Of a stretch of 45,246 bases of DNA, positions 5,953 to 39,543 are shown in pieces; position 1 is the first letter of the stretch, and every line of letters begins with the position of its first letter. The position numbers and the translations under genes were made by a program. Source of the DNA: a virus. Taxonomy: Duplodnaviria > Heunggongvirae > Uroviricota > Caudoviricetes. The notes below the pieces were generated by a model. That model saw only the letters and a program-made list of their open reading frames with translations. It did no database searches and was not told where the DNA came from. The stretch lies in the IMG/VR virus record IMGVR_UViG_2778261297_000003. One strand, 5' to 3'.

Positions 5953-6533
5953 GTCACCTGATCCTCTGTTTTTTGGCTGCGGATATTGTCATTGCCACTC
6001 TGGGCATTTTTAACCACATGATCATGGTCATTATGTGCATCCCGCAGCTCTTTCAGTGTTCGGGTATTGGTTTCACAGTTATCAACAATGTCACCCGTGC
6101 ACCTCAGGATCGGGGTATTTGCAAGAATCCCCTGGCTGGCATTGATGGTCACGTTAGTGGCGTTATTGACCTCAACATTCTGGCCCTTTGCATCCAGGAA
6201 GATCCCCTTCTCCGTCAGGAGAATATTAAGACCCCACTGGTTATACATGACCGTTTCGCCCGCTTTCAGGCCTGTATGACGGAACCCCTGATGGTTGGAC
6301 GCAATTACCACCGCGCTGGAACGATCACCGCCAATAAAAGCCAGAACCACGTCAGTCCCTGACGGCAGGCCGGATGAAAAACCAAATTCAGCCATCCGCG
6401 GTGCGCTGGCCACCTCCAGCGGAGTCTGGTACTGGATTGACTGCACCACCCCACCATCTTTCATAGCCGTGATCCGGCCAATCCCCAGCATGCCGGCGAT
6501 CCTGGTCGCTGCATGTTTAAATAGTTGCTTCAT
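5949..6533 (-). CDS. baseplate assembly protein V / spike (Mu gp45-like)
   Basis: 194-aa ORF, position and size consistent with gpV-like baseplate spike. Confidence 0.7.
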   Translation of the reverse strand: MKQLFKHAATRIAGMLGIGRITAMKDGGVVQSIQYQTPLEVASAPRMAEFGFSSGLPSGTDVVLAFIGGDRSSAVVIASNHQGFRHTGLKAGETVMYNQWGLNILLTEKGIFLDAKGQNVEVNNATNVTINASQGILANTPILRCTGDIVDNCETNTRTLKELRDAHNDHDHVVKNAQSGNDNIRSQKTEDQVT

Positions 6534-7615
6534 GTATTGAATCCCGCCAGGTTCTGGTAGAAGGCATATGGCTGAACGGCGAATGCTTCAGGCGGCATCA
6601 GCGTCATGCGTGCATGGGTGCCGTAGTCATCGCGCATATAGGTGACTTCTGCCAGTAGCAATTCAGTCTCCGGCAACCGTAAGGTGGGAAGATCAACGGG
6701 GATCAATGTGTTTGGTTCCCACAGTTTCCCGTCTTTATCCCGCCAGGAATCGATGGTTACCGAGAGCTGTTTTGAACGTCCGTACCGCCGGTTCATTTCC
6801 CAGTCGATCGCACTTTGTGCCTGTTGAGTAGCCATCAGGGTACTTTCCACAATCGATATATGTTTTCGGTACCGCATACGGGCGGCCTCCGGATCTCTCG
6901 CCGTTGCCAGAGTCACAGCGTCATAGGCCGTATCAGGCGAATACCCTGCAATTGGAGAAACGCTCATTGATACACCGACATAATCTGAAAACCTGTCAGC
7001 CATCGATTTGCGGTAGTATGCCTGCTCGACATTTACCCCTTCGGCTATCCCACTCGCCGCACGACGTGTTCCCACCCGGGTCAGTAACAGGTTTCCATCG
7101 GGCTGATCGTAGTAAAGCAGAGCAGACCATCTGGCCACCCGATCGATGACTTCTTGCGGAGACTCACCCCAGTTCAGAGTGAACTGGGGTACCTTCACAA
7201 GTTCATCAACATCCGTGGTTACGGTGATGCCGTAGTAGGATGCCAGGCGAGAAGCAATTTCAAGTGCATTACTGGCATTAATGACGTTGTTAGGCCACTC
7301 AGCTGAGCAATCCACCAGGTCCTGACATTTGCTCCTGCCCGTGGCGCGGACCTCATGGCGGGAGCGCGATAGTGCGGGTTCCCAGTCATCAACATATCCC
7401 GTCAGTGTCAGATCATCTCCGATACGAACTTCACAAGACATTCCCTCTTCAACGAGTTGACGATCTTCGTTGCCAGGGAAGTAATCCATTAGCCCAAGAT
7501 CGAAATCAGAGGGAAAACGCTCAATACCCCGCGTTACCCGGACAGAATCCCACCCCTCGATGATTTTGCCGTCGACCGTCAAAGAAACAACATCCAGATC
7601 GCTGTCTGCATTCAT
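6530..7615 (-). CDS. tail protein (Mu P / gp44-like, baseplate hub)
   Basis: 361-aa ORF downstream of the DNA circularization-like gene, Mu-like order. Confidence 0.7.
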   Translation of the reverse strand: MNADSDLDVVSLTVDGKIIEGWDSVRVTRGIERFPSDFDLGLMDYFPGNEDRQLVEEGMSCEVRIGDDLTLTGYVDDWEPALSRSRHEVRATGRSKCQDLVDCSAEWPNNVINASNALEIASRLASYYGITVTTDVDELVKVPQFTLNWGESPQEVIDRVARWSALLYYDQPDGNLLLTRVGTRRAASGIAEGVNVEQAYYRKSMADRFSDYVGVSMSVSPIAGYSPDTAYDAVTLATARDPEAARMRYRKHISIVESTLMATQQAQSAIDWEMNRRYGRSKQLSVTIDSWRDKDGKLWEPNTLIPVDLPTLRLPETELLLAEVTYMRDDYGTHARMTLMPPEAFAVQPYAFYQNLAGFNT

Positions 7616-15002: not shown

Positions 15003-16052
15003 TCAGACCACCGTTGCGCAGAGGGATGCATTTACCCGGCTCGGAATAACCAGCGGGGAGGATTGCATCAGGATAAGACGCTGGGCTGGATCTTCTTTCA
15101 CCCAGGATTTTGGCGCATAAGCCAGCGGACCGTAGTTGAAAGCCGGGTCCAGGATAACGCCAAATGCGCGGGTACCCATCAGATCGGCACCACTCATAAT
15201 GACAGCGCCATCGGGGATCATAGGCTTCTCGACGTTGTCCAGCGGGTCAATAAACCAGTCGTTATATAACCAGAGGTCAAAGTTACCCCAGCGCCCTTTA
15301 TAAATTGCGCCCTTCATTACCTGTGGGCCGGCGTTAATCTGGTTACCAAACGGGCTCAGCGCCGGGAATGTAATGGCGTTATCCTTGATGGTGGTATCCA
15401 GTCGGAATGCACGCCATGACTTATTCGTAAAGACCAGATCCGTGGCGACAGAGCCGGACTCTTTCAGGAAAGTAGTCTGCCAGATTTCAATGTCATCTGA
15501 TGGCTGGGTATTGGTAGCGCCAGCTGCAACGGTCAGTGGCCATTTATCCGAGCCGCTAAGAGTGATGGTCAGATCCGAAGCACGCCCGAAATCCACCACC
15601 TGAGTTTCATAGCCCTCCCCGGCGACGGTTACGGTCCCAGACACCAGCGCACTCGCCGCCATCCATTCCAGACGACGGTTGATCATGTCAATCTGGTCAG
15701 TCATTTCAAACTGAAGGTTCAGCATTTCGCGCTCGGCAGCGGTATATTCCCCGCCAATACGCTCACCAATCTGGCGGCGGATAGGTTTGCGCAGGTCCGG
15801 CGCGCGCTTATCTTTGATGTATGCCGGTTTGAAGGTATTGGTCTGGTATTTACGGGATTCGACCAGCTTACCTTCCACCAGCGGGGAGACGAACGGCGCC
15901 ATACGACGCAGGCCGACATCAACATCAATCGCCACTTCTTCAGTCTCGTAAGTCACGACATTCGGGAAGAAGCGATCGAGCAGCCAGTTCTGACTGGTTT
16001 TCAGGTTAGGAACAACCTGCACCAGCACGCTGGTATCAAAAATATTTTCCAT
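15003..16052 (-). CDS. major capsid protein (lambda E-like)
   Basis: 349 aa from MENIFDTSVL; overall resemblance to lambda gpE and position after the D-like gene. Confidence 0.85.
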   Translation of the reverse strand: MENIFDTSVLVQVVPNLKTSQNWLLDRFFPNVVTYETEEVAIDVDVGLRRMAPFVSPLVEGKLVESRKYQTNTFKPAYIKDKRAPDLRKPIRRQIGERIGGEYTAAEREMLNLQFEMTDQIDMINRRLEWMAASALVSGTVTVAGEGYETQVVDFGRASDLTITLSGSDKWPLTVAAGATNTQPSDDIEIWQTTFLKESGSVATDLVFTNKSWRAFRLDTTIKDNAITFPALSPFGNQINAGPQVMKGAIYKGRWGNFDLWLYNDWFIDPLDNVEKPMIPDGAVIMSGADLMGTRAFGVILDPAFNYGPLAYAPKSWVKEDPAQRLILMQSSPLVIPSRVNASLCATVV

Positions 16053-16149
16053 ATTCAGTCTCTTGATAGTGCCAGCCGCAGCTGGCAAAAAATTTAAACG
16101 AGCCAGCCCCTGCCGGTTAAAGCATTCGTCAGGAGAGCCGTGGGGGAAA

Positions 16150-16554
16150 TCAGGAGGTGGTTACAGGTGCCTGGTCACTGTCTTTCAGGAAGATAGCCAG
16201 CGGTCGGAGCGCTTTTTTCAGGTCAGCGGTCGTCCAGGAGTTATCAAAAATAATTCGGTGCTGGTTGAATTCCCCCATCAGATACAGGCCGCCGTTCTGA
16301 TCGGAAGACGATGCATCAACATCATCAACCAGAATAGCAACGGGTAACTGACTGCCATCTTCAGCCGTTTTCACACATTGCGTGTATTTCCCGCTGGCAG
16401 CCACCAGGCCCAGGACAGTACCACGCTTAAAGGCACCGCCCGTAATGATCCCGGTGTCAGTCACCAGCTGGAGCGTGCCAGCGACAAGCTGATCCGGAAC
16501 AAACAGCGCGCTCTTCATGCCAGGCGCAAACGCATTCTGACCAAACTGATCCAT
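16150..16554 (-). CDS. head decoration protein (D-like)
   Basis: 134-aa ORF between scaffold and major capsid genes. Confidence 0.7.
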   Translation of the reverse strand: MDQFGQNAFAPGMKSALFVPDQLVAGTLQLVTDTGIITGGAFKRGTVLGLVAASGKYTQCVKTAEDGSQLPVAILVDDVDASSSDQNGGLYLMGEFNQHRIIFDNSWTTADLKKALRPLAIFLKDSDQAPVTTS

Positions 16555-30613: not shown

Positions 30614-32551
30614 TCAGGCGGCTGCACCCGCCTTTTGATTTGCACATAATTCAGGAAGATTTGCTTCTACCAGCGCACGAGCGAACGGCGGCGGTACTGC
30701 GTTACCACAGCGCGCTACCTGCTTGTCTTTGGCGTAACGATTGCCGCGATAGTCCTGATCGATAACGTAGCCGTCAGGGAAGCCCTGCGCCTTATAAAGC
30801 TCATGCGGTTGCAGCATGCGCATTCCGATATCGACGATCTGGTACTTAACCCCCTCGATCGTCACCAGCCATTCATCCTCGCTATCACCGCAGTAGGTTT
30901 CGAGGAATGTCCGGACCTCGCCAACGTGCTGGCCACCAGCGGTAATCGTCGGCATAGGTGTATCCATGGTCTGACCGTCGCTGCAGGTTCCGCGCAGCTT
31001 CACCAGGTGCGACGCAACTACCGCGTGGTGATCAACAGTAGTGACTGAGTGGGCAGGCTCATCCATACCAACACCCGGCCCCGTGTAATTCCCACCATAG
31101 TGCTTCGCCAGGAACGCGCTCACCGTTGCAAACTTATTACCACCAGCAGTGACCGTGCCGAGCGGGTTATTCAGTTGAAGAACACGCGGTTCTTGCCCTG
31201 GGCGTTCGCCGTACCCCATCTGGATCAGTGTTGGAGTTACCAGCTGCGACTTACCGCCACCACCTGCAGTAATCGTCGCACTCGGTTCGTCAGCCCTGTG
31301 CCCAACACTGGCTCCAAACTGGCGGGCGATGACCGGCGCAACCACGCACGCGCGGGACTGCTTGAGGATTGTATGAGCGGGTTTATCCAGCGGGCGCGGC
31401 TTTGCCTGGTACTCACTGCCGCCATTGCCAGCCAGGAACGGTGTCAGGGCGGCCTCAACTACGCCAAGCGCATGCCCATTCCCGCCCGGGCGCGCCGACG
31501 TACCAGCGGTGACAGTTGGTACCGGCTCGGTCACTGGCTGCCCGGTGGCCCCGGTGCGGAATTTAGTAAGATGCGGTACCGCCAGTGCGTAGCCATGCTT
31601 TTTAGTGATGGTCTGCAATGGCTCTAACAACGATTGCCCGCGGAAACAGTCATAACCTCCTTTCGTCGTGGTGTGGTTACACTTCACGATGAAAGGTGAT
31701 GCGCTTTCGATAACAAAGCGCTGGATGCCGCGCGCGATACGTTTGAGCGTATTTTCCGCCAGCGGCTTTTTGCGGTCGAAGATGGACCGGGCCGGGATAT
31801 TCCAGTCAATGCACTCCGCCGCGGTACGCCATGGCGCCAGCTTGCCGCTTTGTACTTCCAGTGATTTTGGATCCCCATGAGTCGCTTCAGGCCAATGAAT
31901 CTTGCGGCCGTCACAGCGCATGACCATGAAGAAACGCTTTCTGATCGTCGGCGCGCCGTAGTCACATGCGCGCAGCTCCCGATAATCAACCTCATAACCA
32001 AGCCCGGCGATCAGCTGTTGCGCCTGCTGGCCGTGCGGCTCAATGGCAAGGAATTCACAAACCTCAGCCAGCGCAGGGTGATTCGCCGCGATCCCCGTCG
32101 ACAGCATGCCGACAAATGCCTCGAATGTTTCGCCAGCACGCTCAGGATCTGGGCGTAATTCTTCATCCAGCAGCGGGCCCCATGTCTTAAACTCTTCGAC
32201 GTTCTCCAGCATCATGACGCGGGGACGTACTGCCAGCGCCCAGCGCAGGACAATCCACGCCAGCCCGCGAATCTCTTTCTTAACCGGCTTAGCGCCCTTC
32301 GCCTTGGAAAAGTGGCGGCAGTCAGGGCTAAACCAGGCCAGACCGACAGGTTTACCGCTGGTGGCTGCGCTTGGGTCAACGTCAAACACCGACTCGCAAT
32401 AATGCAGCGTGTCAGGGTGATTCGTCTTATGCATCGCAATAGCGTTTTCGTCGTGGTTGATAGCGATATCCACGCTACGCCCGATCGCCAGTTCAATGCC
32501 GGTACTCGCGCCGCCGCCACCAGCAAAGTTATCAACGATAATTTCACGCAT
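30614..32551 (-). CDS. DNA (cytosine-5)-methyltransferase, large, with repeated TRD-like modules
   Basis: About 645 aa from MREIIVDNFAGGGGAS (motif I); SPDC..FS.AKG (motif IV-like), MLENV (motif VI), RKRFFMV (motif VIII), CGNAV (motif X); four TxTAGG-containing repeats between motifs VIII and X. Confidence 0.8.
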   Translation of the reverse strand: MREIIVDNFAGGGGASTGIELAIGRSVDIAINHDENAIAMHKTNHPDTLHYCESVFDVDPSAATSGKPVGLAWFSPDCRHFSKAKGAKPVKKEIRGLAWIVLRWALAVRPRVMMLENVEEFKTWGPLLDEELRPDPERAGETFEAFVGMLSTGIAANHPALAEVCEFLAIEPHGQQAQQLIAGLGYEVDYRELRACDYGAPTIRKRFFMVMRCDGRKIHWPEATHGDPKSLEVQSGKLAPWRTAAECIDWNIPARSIFDRKKPLAENTLKRIARGIQRFVIESASPFIVKCNHTTTKGGYDCFRGQSLLEPLQTITKKHGYALAVPHLTKFRTGATGQPVTEPVPTVTAGTSARPGGNGHALGVVEAALTPFLAGNGGSEYQAKPRPLDKPAHTILKQSRACVVAPVIARQFGASVGHRADEPSATITAGGGGKSQLVTPTLIQMGYGERPGQEPRVLQLNNPLGTVTAGGNKFATVSAFLAKHYGGNYTGPGVGMDEPAHSVTTVDHHAVVASHLVKLRGTCSDGQTMDTPMPTITAGGQHVGEVRTFLETYCGDSEDEWLVTIEGVKYQIVDIGMRMLQPHELYKAQGFPDGYVIDQDYRGNRYAKDKQVARCGNAVPPPFARALVEANLPELCANQKAGAAA

Positions 32552-33878
32552 TGACGGCCCCCTGCATGCTGTTGAAGAGACCACCAGCGGTCGTGATAAT
32601 TTCACTCGTCGGCATACGTTCGAGCCACAGCTGGTTGATATTGGCTTTCAGCTTGTTCTGCTGCGAAACAGGTAGAGCGTCAGCCCCTTCAATCTGGTTA
32701 AACACCAGTCCAACCTCAAGAGGCCAAACGCGCGATTCGTTTAACGCCTTGTCCTTTGATTCCTGCGTCTCACGGACATGGGCGCGGATCCCCCGAATAT
32801 TTGACCATTTGGCTTTATCCAGGCTTTCCATGGTCGCGATGAATTCACTGTGGTTAATGCCGTATTCTTTCGCAGACTCAACGGCAACCGTGCGTAACCG
32901 CTCTGACATGTCTTGTTTCACGTCATCGCTATCAAAGGGCAATGTTTCCAGCCATGCATTAACACCCACCAGGATGCTCTCGCTGATCAGCTTTTTCGCT
33001 CTGTCGATCGTCAGCGGTGAAACATTGGTAAATTCAGGGTTTTCCAGAGAGTCGGCAGCCCAGGTATGACCAAACTTTGACTCGCTGAAGGTGTACTCGT
33101 CTTTCTTGCCGAACGCCGCGACAACACAGGCCCAAGCCTCTACACCGCTGGTTTCCAGAATGGCTTTTTGGGTTAATGGCAGTTCTGCCTCTGATTTCTC
33201 CGGCACTACCTCAGCGTCCAGCTCCGGCGCCGCATCAGTTTGCGTTCTTCCCACGGCAAATTGGGCCAGCGACATCGCAGCACGGCCTTTGGCCTCCAGG
33301 TCGGTGCGGTTGATGTAACTGAAACGCTCACCCCGCCATGTTTTGTCGAAGACCACGATAGCGCCAGCAAAAAATGCGCTGGTGGGCTGCTGCTTTTCGT
33401 CTTTCGGCACGAACCATGTAGGAAGATCGAAACCAATTCGGCCACGGATGAATGTGACGTGATCTGCCTCTTCCGGCCACCACGTCTCACTCGTCGCAGA
33501 CTTAATGAGAAAAACGTACCGTCCACCCTTTTCTCGCATTGCCATAGCGTGGTTAATGATGTGGGTCATTCCGGTAACGGCCTGCTTGTCGTGGTACTGA
33601 GAGCGGCTGTAAGGCGGGTTGCCAAACCCGGCACCACCGAGTTCTGCCAGACGCTCTGACCAATCCTGCGTCAGGGCATTATTTTCAGCCGTGTACCAGG
33701 TTGGGCACTTCGCGTTGCTGTCGTCGGCAAAAAGGTCCAACACCAGAGGGCCGAACATCGCATTGATACCCCAAAACAACAGATCCGGAGTGCGCCATTG
33801 ATCGCCGACCTCTTTCAACTCATGGGCTGGTTTTGAACGCAGTTCAGCCAGCGCGCGGCAGTATTTGCTTTCAATCAT
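32544..33878 (-). CDS. phage Dam-type N6-adenine methyltransferase (NPPY) fused to a 270-aa C-terminal domain of unknown function
   Basis: N-terminal region WRTPDLLF...GFGNPPYS matches phage Dam family; C-terminal extension has no recognised motifs. Confidence 0.7.
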   Translation of the reverse strand: MIESKYCRALAELRSKPAHELKEVGDQWRTPDLLFWGINAMFGPLVLDLFADDSNAKCPTWYTAENNALTQDWSERLAELGGAGFGNPPYSRSQYHDKQAVTGMTHIINHAMAMREKGGRYVFLIKSATSETWWPEEADHVTFIRGRIGFDLPTWFVPKDEKQQPTSAFFAGAIVVFDKTWRGERFSYINRTDLEAKGRAAMSLAQFAVGRTQTDAAPELDAEVVPEKSEAELPLTQKAILETSGVEAWACVVAAFGKKDEYTFSESKFGHTWAADSLENPEFTNVSPLTIDRAKKLISESILVGVNAWLETLPFDSDDVKQDMSERLRTVAVESAKEYGINHSEFIATMESLDKAKWSNIRGIRAHVRETQESKDKALNESRVWPLEVGLVFNQIEGADALPVSQQNKLKANINQLWLERMPTSEIITTAGGLFNSMQGAVNA

Positions 33879-38875: not shown

Positions 38876-39003
38876 TTGCTCTGCATTAAATCCCCGGCGC
38901 CGCGGGGATTTATTGAAGCGTAATTCCATTAATTATCGCCATCCGGCGAGGGATTCGTGCAACCAAAATCTGCGCGGTGCAGCGCGCCAATATGGAGAAA
39001 ACC

Positions 39004-39543
39004 ATGAGCTACATTCAGACATTATCCGGCAAACACTTTAATTACCTCGATATCCAACAGGACGATATCGTCATCGAGGATATTGCTACTGCGCTGTCTC
39101 ATATCTGCCGTTTTGCTGGGCATCTTCCTGAGTTTTACAGCGTCGGCCAGCATAGCGTTTTAACCAGCCATCTCGTTCCGCAGGAGTTTGCCTTAGAAGC
39201 ACTGCTTCATGATGCCGCCGAAGCCTACCTGCAAGATATTCCCTCACCGCTTAAGCGCCTGTTACCGGATTACCAGGTGATCGAAGCTCGCGTAGACGCT
39301 GCTATTCGCCAGAAATTTGGCCTACCGACGGAGCAACACCCAACAGTGAAATATGCCGATCTGGTGATGCTCGCCAGCGAACGCCGCGATTTTGAGATTG
39401 ACGAAGGTTCCGTGTGGCCATGCCTCGATGGCGTTGTCCCGACGGACCTATTCATCATCAATCCAGTTCGTCCAGGCCAGTCATACGGCATGTTCATAAA
39501 TCGCTTTAATGAGTTGATGGAGCAGCGTCAATGCGCCGCATGA
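39004..39543 (+). CDS. HD-domain phosphohydrolase (YfdR-like)
   Basis: From MSYIQTLSG; His and HD motifs (..ALSHICRFAGH.., ..LLHDAAEAY..). Confidence 0.7.
   Translation: MSYIQTLSGKHFNYLDIQQDDIVIEDIATALSHICRFAGHLPEFYSVGQHSVLTSHLVPQEFALEALLHDAAEAYLQDIPSPLKRLLPDYQVIEARVDAAIRQKFGLPTEQHPTVKYADLVMLASERRDFEIDEGSVWPCLDGVVPTDLFIINPVRPGQSYGMFINRFNELMEQRQCAA

Follow-up and report, generated by a model that had tools for sequence, protein, structure and literature searches.

Lambdoid late operons comprise ∼25 genes behind one promoter, the needs for their products differ ∼1000-fold, and the post-transcriptional share in meeting these needs is poorly charted. In the papBA operon, RNase E cleaves between the cistrons, 5' of a hairpin that then protects the message of the major pilin. 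Synthetic tunable intergenic regions, in which two hairpins flank an RNase E site, were reportedly constructed by Pfleger, Keasling and colleagues in 2006. Among E. coli operons with a stabilized middle or downstream gene, an RNase E site was found immediately upstream in 10 of 15 (PMC5927463); all of these 10 sites lay in unstructured RNA with the motif RN|WUU, seven of them just upstream of a stable structure, and 3' hairpins of the malE-malF type protect upstream cistrons (PMC5927463). As for phages, RNase E processing of the T4 gene 32 mRNA 71 nucleotides (nt) upstream of the start gives rise to the most stable T4 message (PMC3014915). Here, we have analyzed a hairpin in the spacer between the genes for the head decoration protein and the major capsid protein of a virus of the Caudoviricetes (IMG/VR virus record IMGVR_UViG_2778261297_000003; the whole stretch of 45,246 nt is referred to as the window). 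Sequence comparisons indicate that this hairpin, in the untranslated gap before the capsid cistron on the Q-antiterminated late mRNA, functions as an RNA stem-loop and is selected as an RNA structure and not as a sequence.

The spacer comprises 97 nt (16149-16053, minus strand) and reads, on the coding strand from 5' to 3', UUUCCCCCACGGCUCUCCUGACGAAUGCUUUAACCGGCAGGGGCUGGCUCGUUUAAAUUUUUU-GCCAGC-UGCG-GCUGGC-ACUAUCAAGAGACUGAAU, followed by AUG. The hairpin and the two genes on either side of it are as follows:

16070 to 16087, minus strand: the reported hairpin, stem-loop 2 (SL2), U-GCCAGC / UGCG loop / GCUGGC-A (sequence, energy and covariation)
16150 to 16554, minus strand: head decoration protein gene, lambda gpD-like (open reading frame (ORF); RefSeq annotation of the identical E. 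coli ECONIH4 prophage)
16152 to 16150, minus strand: UGA stop codon of the decoration gene (ORF)
15003 to 16052, minus strand: major capsid protein gene, lambda gpE-like (ORF; RefSeq annotation of the identical E. coli prophage)
16052 to 16050, minus strand: ATG of the capsid gene (ORF; RefSeq; MENIFDTS N-terminus kept in relatives)

Positions 16086-16081 make up the 5' arm of the hairpin, 16080-16077 its loop and 16076-16071 its 3' arm; a seventh pair is added by U16087-A16070, and the whole structure extends from −35 to −18 relative to the capsid AUG. Its context on the minus strand is 5'-UUUUUU GCCAGC UGCG GCUGGC ACUAUC-3'. A preliminary description of this DNA had noticed a perfect hairpin in the decoration-capsid spacer and had located it on the late transcript, with the decoration and capsid genes on either side. 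Both observations were confirmed, with the hairpin on the minus (coding) strand at 16087-16070; on the other hand, the position given there (about 16064-16079) was 7 nt too low, and the distance to the capsid start, put at ∼15 nt, is 18 nt between the 6-bp stem and the ATG. Closed by a C-G pair, the UGCG loop falls into the UNCG class, as does UACG, the sole other 4-nt loop in the clade. The hairpin alone has a folding energy of −13.8 kcal/mol (z = −3.9 compared with shuffles), and the whole spacer with its flanks was not unusually stable (z = −0.9). Perfect hairpins of at least 7 bp numbered ∼24 (distinct) in the window vs 16.4 ± 4.8 in shuffles, and ∼0.035 of them would be expected by chance per 97-nt spacer. 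Considering that chance alone often yields comparable hairpins in 45 kb, the single sequence is only suggestive.

To date, we have examined 129 loci that code for proteins related to the capsid protein, among the matches listed (∼220 further IMG/VR loci exist), and these loci provided 75 distinct decoration-capsid spacers. The comparison set used below, unless another number is given, consisted of 56 distinct long-type Enterobacterales spacers from Escherichia, Kluyvera, Citrobacter, Raoultella, Edwardsiella, Salmonella, Serratia, Yersinia, Photorhabdus, Xenorhabdus, Rahnella, Ewingella, Erwinia and other genera. The hairpin was the only robust helix in the RNAalifold consensus of this set, 94.9% of the hairpin cells were paired, and two-sided changes were found at all seven pairs, in 44 cells. 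None of 500 shuffles reached the observed values for pairing and covariation, although it should be noted that the compared sequences are related to each other and such statistics overstate their independence. When the 3' partner was slid by 1-3 columns, pairing fell to 13-50% and the covariation score dropped from 0.365 to at most 0.13. At least seven different stem sequences occupied the same site in the spacers of relatives, including GCCAGC/GCUGGC, GCCGGC/GCCGGC, GCCGGG/CCCGGC, GCCAGU/ACUGGC, GUCGGUG/CACCGAC, GCUGAC/GUCAGC, CUGGCGGC/GCUGCCAG, CCCGGCC/GGUCGGG and GCCCGCC/GGCGGGC. The loops varied freely, with 29 sequences of 3-10 nt, and this variation implies that the hairpin region is non-coding. 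Because G-U wobble pairs on the sense strand outnumbered A-C pairs 10 to 1, the structure must be read on the mRNA strand and not as a DNA palindrome; together with the compensatory changes, this supports an RNA structure under selection. The range of hairpin energies was kept between −11.7 and −20.6 kcal/mol (21 lineages), and the last base of the stem was 18 nt from the ATG in 48 spacers and 14-23 nt in the rest.

The hairpin forms part of a larger, single-copy spacer element of ∼82 nt, the components of which are listed here:

16053 to 16134, minus strand: conserved structured spacer element, comprising stem-loop 1 (SL1), the AAUU linker, the hairpin and the Shine-Dalgarno region (covariance model R1)
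16098 to 16141, minus strand: upstream stem-loop SL1 (minimum free energy (MFE) folds; alignments A2 and A3)
16124 to 16121 paired with 16114 to 16111, minus strand: inner stem of SL1, UGCU with GGCA (MFE folds)
16114 to 16108, minus strand: conserved GGCAGGG (alignments A2 and A3)
16088 to 16097, minus strand: single-stranded A/U-rich linker UUUAAAUUUU, candidate RNase E cleavage site (column counts and unpaired probability)
16059 to 16064, minus strand: Shine-Dalgarno-like AAGAGA, with GAG at −10 to −8 (sequence; columns nearly invariant in A2 and A3)

Model R1, which was built from alignment A3, gave one strong match in the window (16134-16053, 79.6 bits, E 2e-22) and one match in each enteric relative, always immediately upstream of the capsid gene. 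It matched none of the betaproteobacterial relatives, nor lambda, Gifsy-1, Chi, Sano and others. A weak match on the plus strand of the window (38926-39004; 16 bits, rough E ∼0.01), within the 3' end of a YfdQ-family gene, is probably due to chance. A repeat like the repetitive extragenic palindromes (REP) or bacterial interspersed mosaic elements (BIME) could be ruled out, since R1 finds one copy per phage; the 451-bp region had a median of one occurrence per genome and was restricted to the 51 prophage carriers among 5426 E. coli genomes. No Rfam family fits the spacer element, which argues against a known RNA family: the best match to Rfam 15 in the region was uxuA (19.8 bits vs a threshold of 66.8 bits, E 0.81), and nothing reached the gathering level anywhere in the window. 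Two departures from the usual spacer were observed. In Yersinia pekkanenii contig 73 (L015), the ORF-based spacer is 12 nt long, yet R1 detects the complete element (53.7 bits) at 2409-2500; thus, the decoration frame seems to run through the element, which could be due to loss of the stop codon or to an error in the sequence. In three Edwardsiella loci (L009, L034 and L114), the spacer is 130 nt long and has an extra GC hairpin, CCCCCAC-AGGU-GUGGGG, right after the decoration stop codon.

Within the element, the four inner pairs of SL1 (UGCY/RGCA) were invariant or showed wobble-only changes (52 sequences), and a near-invariant GGG directly follows the inner stem on its 3' side. The outer stem of SL1 was lineage-specific. 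In the window it reached −10.7 kcal/mol and was weaker than the good stems of Serratia, Photorhabdus, Yersinia and Erwinia (−12 to −18 kcal/mol). In a fixed register, double changes occurred at five of its six pairs and only 48-87% of the cells paired per position, so that SL1 is less firmly supported than the reported hairpin. In sequence, SL1 was more conserved than the hairpin (near-invariant UGCY...GGCAGGG), and it persists where the hairpin has been lost. The linker contains a near-invariant AAUU at 16094-16091, 3 nt 5' of the hairpin (A in 53, A in 49, U in 56 and U in 56 of the 56 spacers), and the RN|WUU motif was present in 47 spacers. The predicted unpaired probability of the linker averaged 0.84 in 21 lineages and was 0.98 in the window. 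The AAGAGA lies 5-6 nt past the stem, outside the hairpin, and is weak yet near-invariant.

Judging from the genes annotated in the identical prophage of E. coli ECONIH4, the window belongs to a lambdoid myovirus with Q antitermination. This prophage has an integrase, a CI-like repressor, a Cro-like regulator, the Q antiterminator and a lysis cassette; its head genes encode terminase, gpW, portal, S49 protease, a scaffold-like acidic protein, decoration protein and E-like capsid protein, and its tail is Mu-like and contractile. E. coli prophages matched the region at 100% identity, and the region or an 85% variant was present in 51 of 5426 complete genomes. Capsid and decoration proteins identical or nearly identical to those of the window are also encoded by loci of Kluyvera and Citrobacter. 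The nearest isolated phage is Serratia phage vB_SspM_BZS1, in which p07 (decoration) and p08 (capsid) were identified as virion proteins by mass spectrometry; the spacer is unmentioned there (PMC7556043). From terminase to tail assembly, all gene junctions overlap or are at most 8 nt long, the sole exception being the 97-nt decoration-capsid gap. The spacer element lies mid-operon, ∼12 kb from the Q gene, and the capsid message continues into ∼20 more genes. A mosaic joint was seen within the spacer (window ∼16125, minus strand) in L077, L087, L104 and other loci. Many loci had a capsid protein 98-99% identical to that of the window and a decoration protein only 65-86% identical, and by eye the block of high identity in close E. 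coli-type variants (for example, L077 and L008) starts at about AAUGCUUUAACC, in the inner stem of SL1.

We propose that the hairpin and the rest of the spacer element form a differential-decay or processing module of the papBA type, which we regard as the most likely reading, with a confidence a little short of even. In the order SL1, single-stranded AAUU linker, reported hairpin, 5-6 nt, Shine-Dalgarno sequence and AUG, RNase E would cleave the exposed AAUU linker; SL1, at the new 3' end, would guard the portal-protease-scaffold-decoration message from 3' exonucleases, and the reported hairpin, near the new 5' end, would hinder 5'-end-dependent attack of RNase E on the message for the capsid and the genes downstream. 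Each half of the operon would then have a lifetime of its own, and a long-lived template would serve the most abundant virion protein. RNase E cleavage, which we infer at the level of the motif, would bring with it the presumed effects on mRNA stability and protein ratio. The sequence has the features of an RNase E site, namely, a single-stranded A/U-rich RN|WUU and a stable structure 3 nt downstream. The suggestion in the preliminary description that the hairpin may act as a processing site fits these surroundings, with an unpaired AAUU 3 nt upstream, RN|WUU in 47 of 56 spacers and a second stem-loop across the linker; the cleavage itself is the part of that suggestion that stays putative.

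Like papBA, the locus has an A/U-rich single-stranded site of the RN|WUU type just 5' of a stable intercistronic hairpin, the hairpin directly precedes the gene of the most abundant structural subunit, and its sequence is free to vary while pairing is kept. On the other hand, cleavage and stabilization have been demonstrated in papBA whereas they are predicted here, a second, sequence-conserved stem-loop is added upstream of the site, the downstream message runs on through ∼20 more genes instead of stopping at a terminator, and there is no sequence homology between the two. The order of hairpin, RNase E site, hairpin and ribosome binding site is reportedly identical in the synthetic tunable regions; these were engineered, whereas the upstream hairpin of the natural element is sequence-conserved. 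The T4 gene 32 leader also places a host RNase E site before a highly expressed gene on a polycistronic phage mRNA, the upstream part of which decays while the downstream part is long-lived, and the site is conserved in related phages (PMC3014915). The T4 site differs in being at −71 and in working with an autoregulatory pseudoknot bound by gp32 (PMC3014915), and neither a pseudoknot nor an autoregulator is evident in the spacer element. As in malE-malF, where an intergenic stem-loop of the REP type can block 3' exonucleases and favor the upstream cistron, SL1 or the reported hairpin could protect the decoration message. However, the spacer element is single-copy and tied to the phage, whereas REP are multi-copy genomic repeats, and the gene whose product should be required in the largest amount is, unlike in malE-malF, the downstream and not the upstream one.

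Several observations, besides the relatedness of the compared sequences, weigh against a processing module. The RNase E motif is degenerate, and A/U-rich RNA contains many matches to it. Cleavage at A|AUU would produce a single-stranded 5' tail of 6-7 nt, which is longer than the ∼2-4 nt between hairpin and 5' end that reportedly give the best protection in ompA. The capsid gene is not followed by a protective hairpin, and the next gene begins 1 nt past its stop codon. Six lineages (L018, L020, L021, L023, L024 and L050) lack the hairpin and keep SL1 and the linker, so that the hairpin is dispensable in some contexts. The spacing of 18 nt between stem and ATG in 48 of 56 spacers is predicted at least as well by a role in translation initiation. 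For an activation of the ribosome site by processing, the picture was mixed: truncating the RNA at AAUU lowered the mean predicted opening energy of the ribosome site from 5.5 to 4.4 kcal/mol (p = 0.008), in a comparison confounded by the truncation, and the average effect of AAUU processing on opening energy was 1.1-1.3 kcal/mol; the window's own sequence showed no such drop when truncated at AAUU (4.61 vs 4.89 kcal/mol).

Hairpins were also found in the decoration-capsid spacers of other phages. In betaproteobacterial prophages with the same capsid family (Janthinobacterium, Burkholderia, Caballeronia, Herminiimonas, Undibacterium and similar), a spacer of 68-90 nt carries a canonical terminator, that is, a GC hairpin and a U-run:

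Spacer just upstream of position 2501 in L033, L035 and L037-L043: betaproteobacterial terminators

The lambda D-E spacer comprises 55 nt (L135 (J02459) 381-435, corresponding to lambda 6080-6134) and contains, ∼19 nt before the E start, the hairpin AAAGGCCGC-CUGU-GCGGCUUU with further U residues behind it (z −3.2); the core of the stem is GGCCGC-CUGU-GCGGCU, then U7. Strong GC hairpins were present in the same spacer of Gifsy-1 and phage 4A7. Lambda and the betaproteobacterial prophages had a clear 3' U-tract and Gifsy-1 a weak one, whereas 4A7 had none. The 12-20 nt spacers of Chi, Vibrio XM1 and Yersinia YpM_41 were hairpin-free, and those of Sano and RcMaeve had no strong hairpin. A stable decoration-capsid hairpin is therefore recurrent in temperate lambda-type head modules, with differing form. 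The hairpins of lambda, Gifsy-1, 4A7 and the betaproteobacterial prophages share with that of the window the order of decoration and then capsid genes, a stem end ∼19-31 nt before the ATG, a GC-rich stem and a Q-antiterminated late operon. They stand alone, whereas the hairpin of the window has AAUU upstream and a second stem-loop, and lacks a 3' U-tract. In our literature search, we found no paper giving the lambda D-E hairpin a function and none on hairpins upstream of capsid genes.

Translation was considered as another level at which the hairpin may act. Placed at the 5' edge of the 30S site, it could serve as a structural spacer or standby platform that raises capsid translation without cleavage, for example by bringing the U/A-rich linker, a possible S1-binding enhancer, beside the weak Shine-Dalgarno sequence. 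The nearly constant distance between stem and ATG (18 nt in 48 of 56 spacers, 14-23 nt otherwise), the weak but near-invariant AAGAGA, the A/U-rich, unpaired linker directly 5' of the stem and the free variation of loop and stem sequences, as expected of a purely architectural element, would all agree with such a helper. However, the constant distance comes partly from close relatedness, the 18 nt themselves being conserved. The stem (ending at −18) excludes both the ATG and the Shine-Dalgarno sequence (GAG at −10 to −8), and the opening energy of the region −14 to +6 in 21 lineages was 5.45 kcal/mol with the stem intact vs 5.51 with the stem disrupted (p = 0.63) and 5.73 with the stem deleted (p = 0.18). 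Because these in silico changes had no systematic effect on opening energy, a hairpin that occludes or insulates the ribosome site was rejected. Nor did the preliminary proposal that the stem could modulate the translation ratio of decoration to capsid protein find specific support, given that the Shine-Dalgarno sequence and ATG lie outside the stem, that accessibility was unchanged in silico and that six lineages are hairpin-less. A translation helper also leaves the second stem-loop and the strict conservation of AAUU unexplained, and the same six lineages do without the hairpin. We consider it somewhat unlikely, though it is the main rival of the processing module. An operator bound by a phage or host RNA-binding protein that controls capsid synthesis, mainly through SL1 and GGCAGGG with the hairpin as an accessory, appears highly improbable. 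Among lineages with diverged flanks, GGCAGG and the inner stem UGCY/RGCA hardly vary, and the sequence conservation of SL1 exceeds what a simple nuclease barrier needs. However, loop and stem sequences of the reported hairpin are unconserved, no candidate RNA-binding protein could be identified, no known operator family in Rfam matched, and the conservation is partly explicable by recent recombination, with a mosaic joint at the spot.

As to transcription, the hairpin has the GC-rich stem of an intrinsic terminator (6-7 bp with five G-C pairs), and, as a decayed or variant form of the terminator that relatives have at this place, it could work as a weak terminator, attenuator or pause site and limit unscheduled, non-Q-modified transcription into the capsid and tail genes. 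Canonical terminators in this very spacer of the betaproteobacterial relatives, the terminator-like D-E hairpin of lambda and the strong GC hairpins of Gifsy-1 and 4A7 are in line with this idea, and so are Q antitermination and the other terminator-like hairpins with U-runs on the late (minus) strand of the window (27811-27793, 26561-26540, 25307-25288, 23511-23494 and 9055-9035). Against it, the sequence directly 3' of the hairpin, ACUAUCAAGAGA, is not a U-tract; the U-run of the window lies upstream of the stem, and on the opposite strand an A-run follows the stem. A terminator scan revealed no site within 16053-16149 on either strand. An intrinsic terminator was ruled out because of the missing 3' U-tract and the empty scan. 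Moreover, the conserved AAUU and second stem-loop are untypical of terminators, and any homology with terminator-type spacers would be hypothetical, since R1 does not match them. We regard such a transcription-level element as improbable. Given a Q antiterminator and terminator-like hairpins in the late operon, hairpins of the transcript should be read through and act as RNA. To a hairpin with no RNA function, whether a chance palindrome or a DNA-level recombination linker between the decoration and capsid modules, we give almost no credence. A perfect 7-bp hairpin is not rare in 45 kb, and the spacer is a mosaic boundary (capsid 98-99% vs decoration 65-86% identity). However, compensatory double changes at all seven pairs over many stem sequences, the 10 G-U vs 1 A-C pairs, which are unlike a DNA palindrome, and stems that stay paired while loops drift all argue for an RNA function.

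Other candidate roles were rejected individually. An operator hairpin of the MS2 coat type does not fit a stem without Shine-Dalgarno sequence or start codon and loop nucleotides that are unconserved (29 loops in 56 spacers). The final codons of the decoration gene (16150-16162, minus strand) read CACCUCCUGA, nearly the anti-Shine-Dalgarno 3' end of 16S rRNA. A long-range coupling switch between CACCUCCUGA and the capsid Shine-Dalgarno sequence appeared in several single MFE folds, including that of the window, and was not family-wide; a scan of all column pairs across the family revealed no conserved or covarying long-range helix. A switch in which the 5' arm pairs with an upstream GCUGGC appeared in the MFE folds of two close variants only and was, by eye, unconserved elsewhere. 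The GGA of a possible CsrA site in GGCAGGGAU was unconserved, by eye, in the spacer of the window and most E. coli-type variants. No sigma-70 promoter was found by a scan of the spacer, and TTGCCA and CACTAT are only 11-12 bp apart (by eye). An RNase III site would be an interrupted helix of ∼20 bp, whereas the hairpin has 6-10 bp and SL1 at most ∼13 bp with internal loops. The boxB of nut sites has a GNRA-like pentaloop on a 5-bp stem beside boxA, and put RNA consists of two abutting stem-loops just downstream of a promoter. Neither nut/boxB nor the put RNA of HK022 fits the spacer element, in which the loops are variable and not GAAAA-like and the stem-loops are ∼20 nt apart. Finally, an extension of the capsid ORF from an upstream in-frame TTG at 16088 was rejected because the frame would be broken by differences in loop length that are not multiples of three; RefSeq and all relatives begin the capsid protein at MENIF and not at this TTG.

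Some further observations were made in the window and its relatives. Among the terminator-like hairpins of the late strand, that at 27811-27793 lies just downstream of the Q gene, like lambda tR', and that at 9055-9035 lies in a 343-nt gap after a large hypothetical gene (L134 34076-36004) and before the gene for a DNA circularization protein. A terminator between decoration and capsid genes, as in the betaproteobacterial prophages, would be oddly placed unless late transcription is antiterminated. Two other, long perfect palindromes were found, one at 7166-7190 with an 11-bp stem (ACCCCAGTTCA-GAG-TGAACTGGGGT) and one at 38887-38912 with a 10-bp stem (TAAATCCCCG-GCGCCG-CGGGGATTTA). The tail-fiber end at ∼930-2920 (L134 42377-44363) looks invertible, with facing tail-fiber assembly genes and a truncated gp53-like fragment; a gene for a serine-type 'recombinase family protein' adjoins this segment, which resembles the G segment of Mu with Gin. 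At ∼30680-32617 (L134 12677-14613), a DNA cytosine methyltransferase gene is annotated by RefSeq as a frameshifted pseudogene, beside an intact gene for an N6-adenine methyltransferase.

Intercistronic stem-loops that partition operon expression are already known, and the motif of two stem-loops and AAUU described here is uncatalogued and confined to one prophage family. If the hairpin were merely a generic stability hairpin, the result would be an ordinary one. The stoichiometry of virion proteins has classically been credited to translation initiation alone. It is unlikely, though conceivable, that the decoration-capsid hairpin is a general feature of lambda-type head clusters, that is, an operon-splitting module that turns the single Q-antiterminated late transcript into separately stabilized messages; if so, lambda, Gifsy-1 and the betaproteobacterial prophages would have a terminator-like version of it and the family studied here the two-hairpin AAUU version, and in each case it would help to set virion stoichiometry. 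The spacer element is present in prophages of at least 15 genera of Enterobacterales and has positional counterparts in lambda. It could be used as a cis-regulatory motif for RNA family collections and as a landmark for the starts of capsid genes. As a single-copy element supported by covariation and placed before the gene of the most abundant virion protein, it provides a concrete site at which the segmental stabilization of mRNA may be tested.

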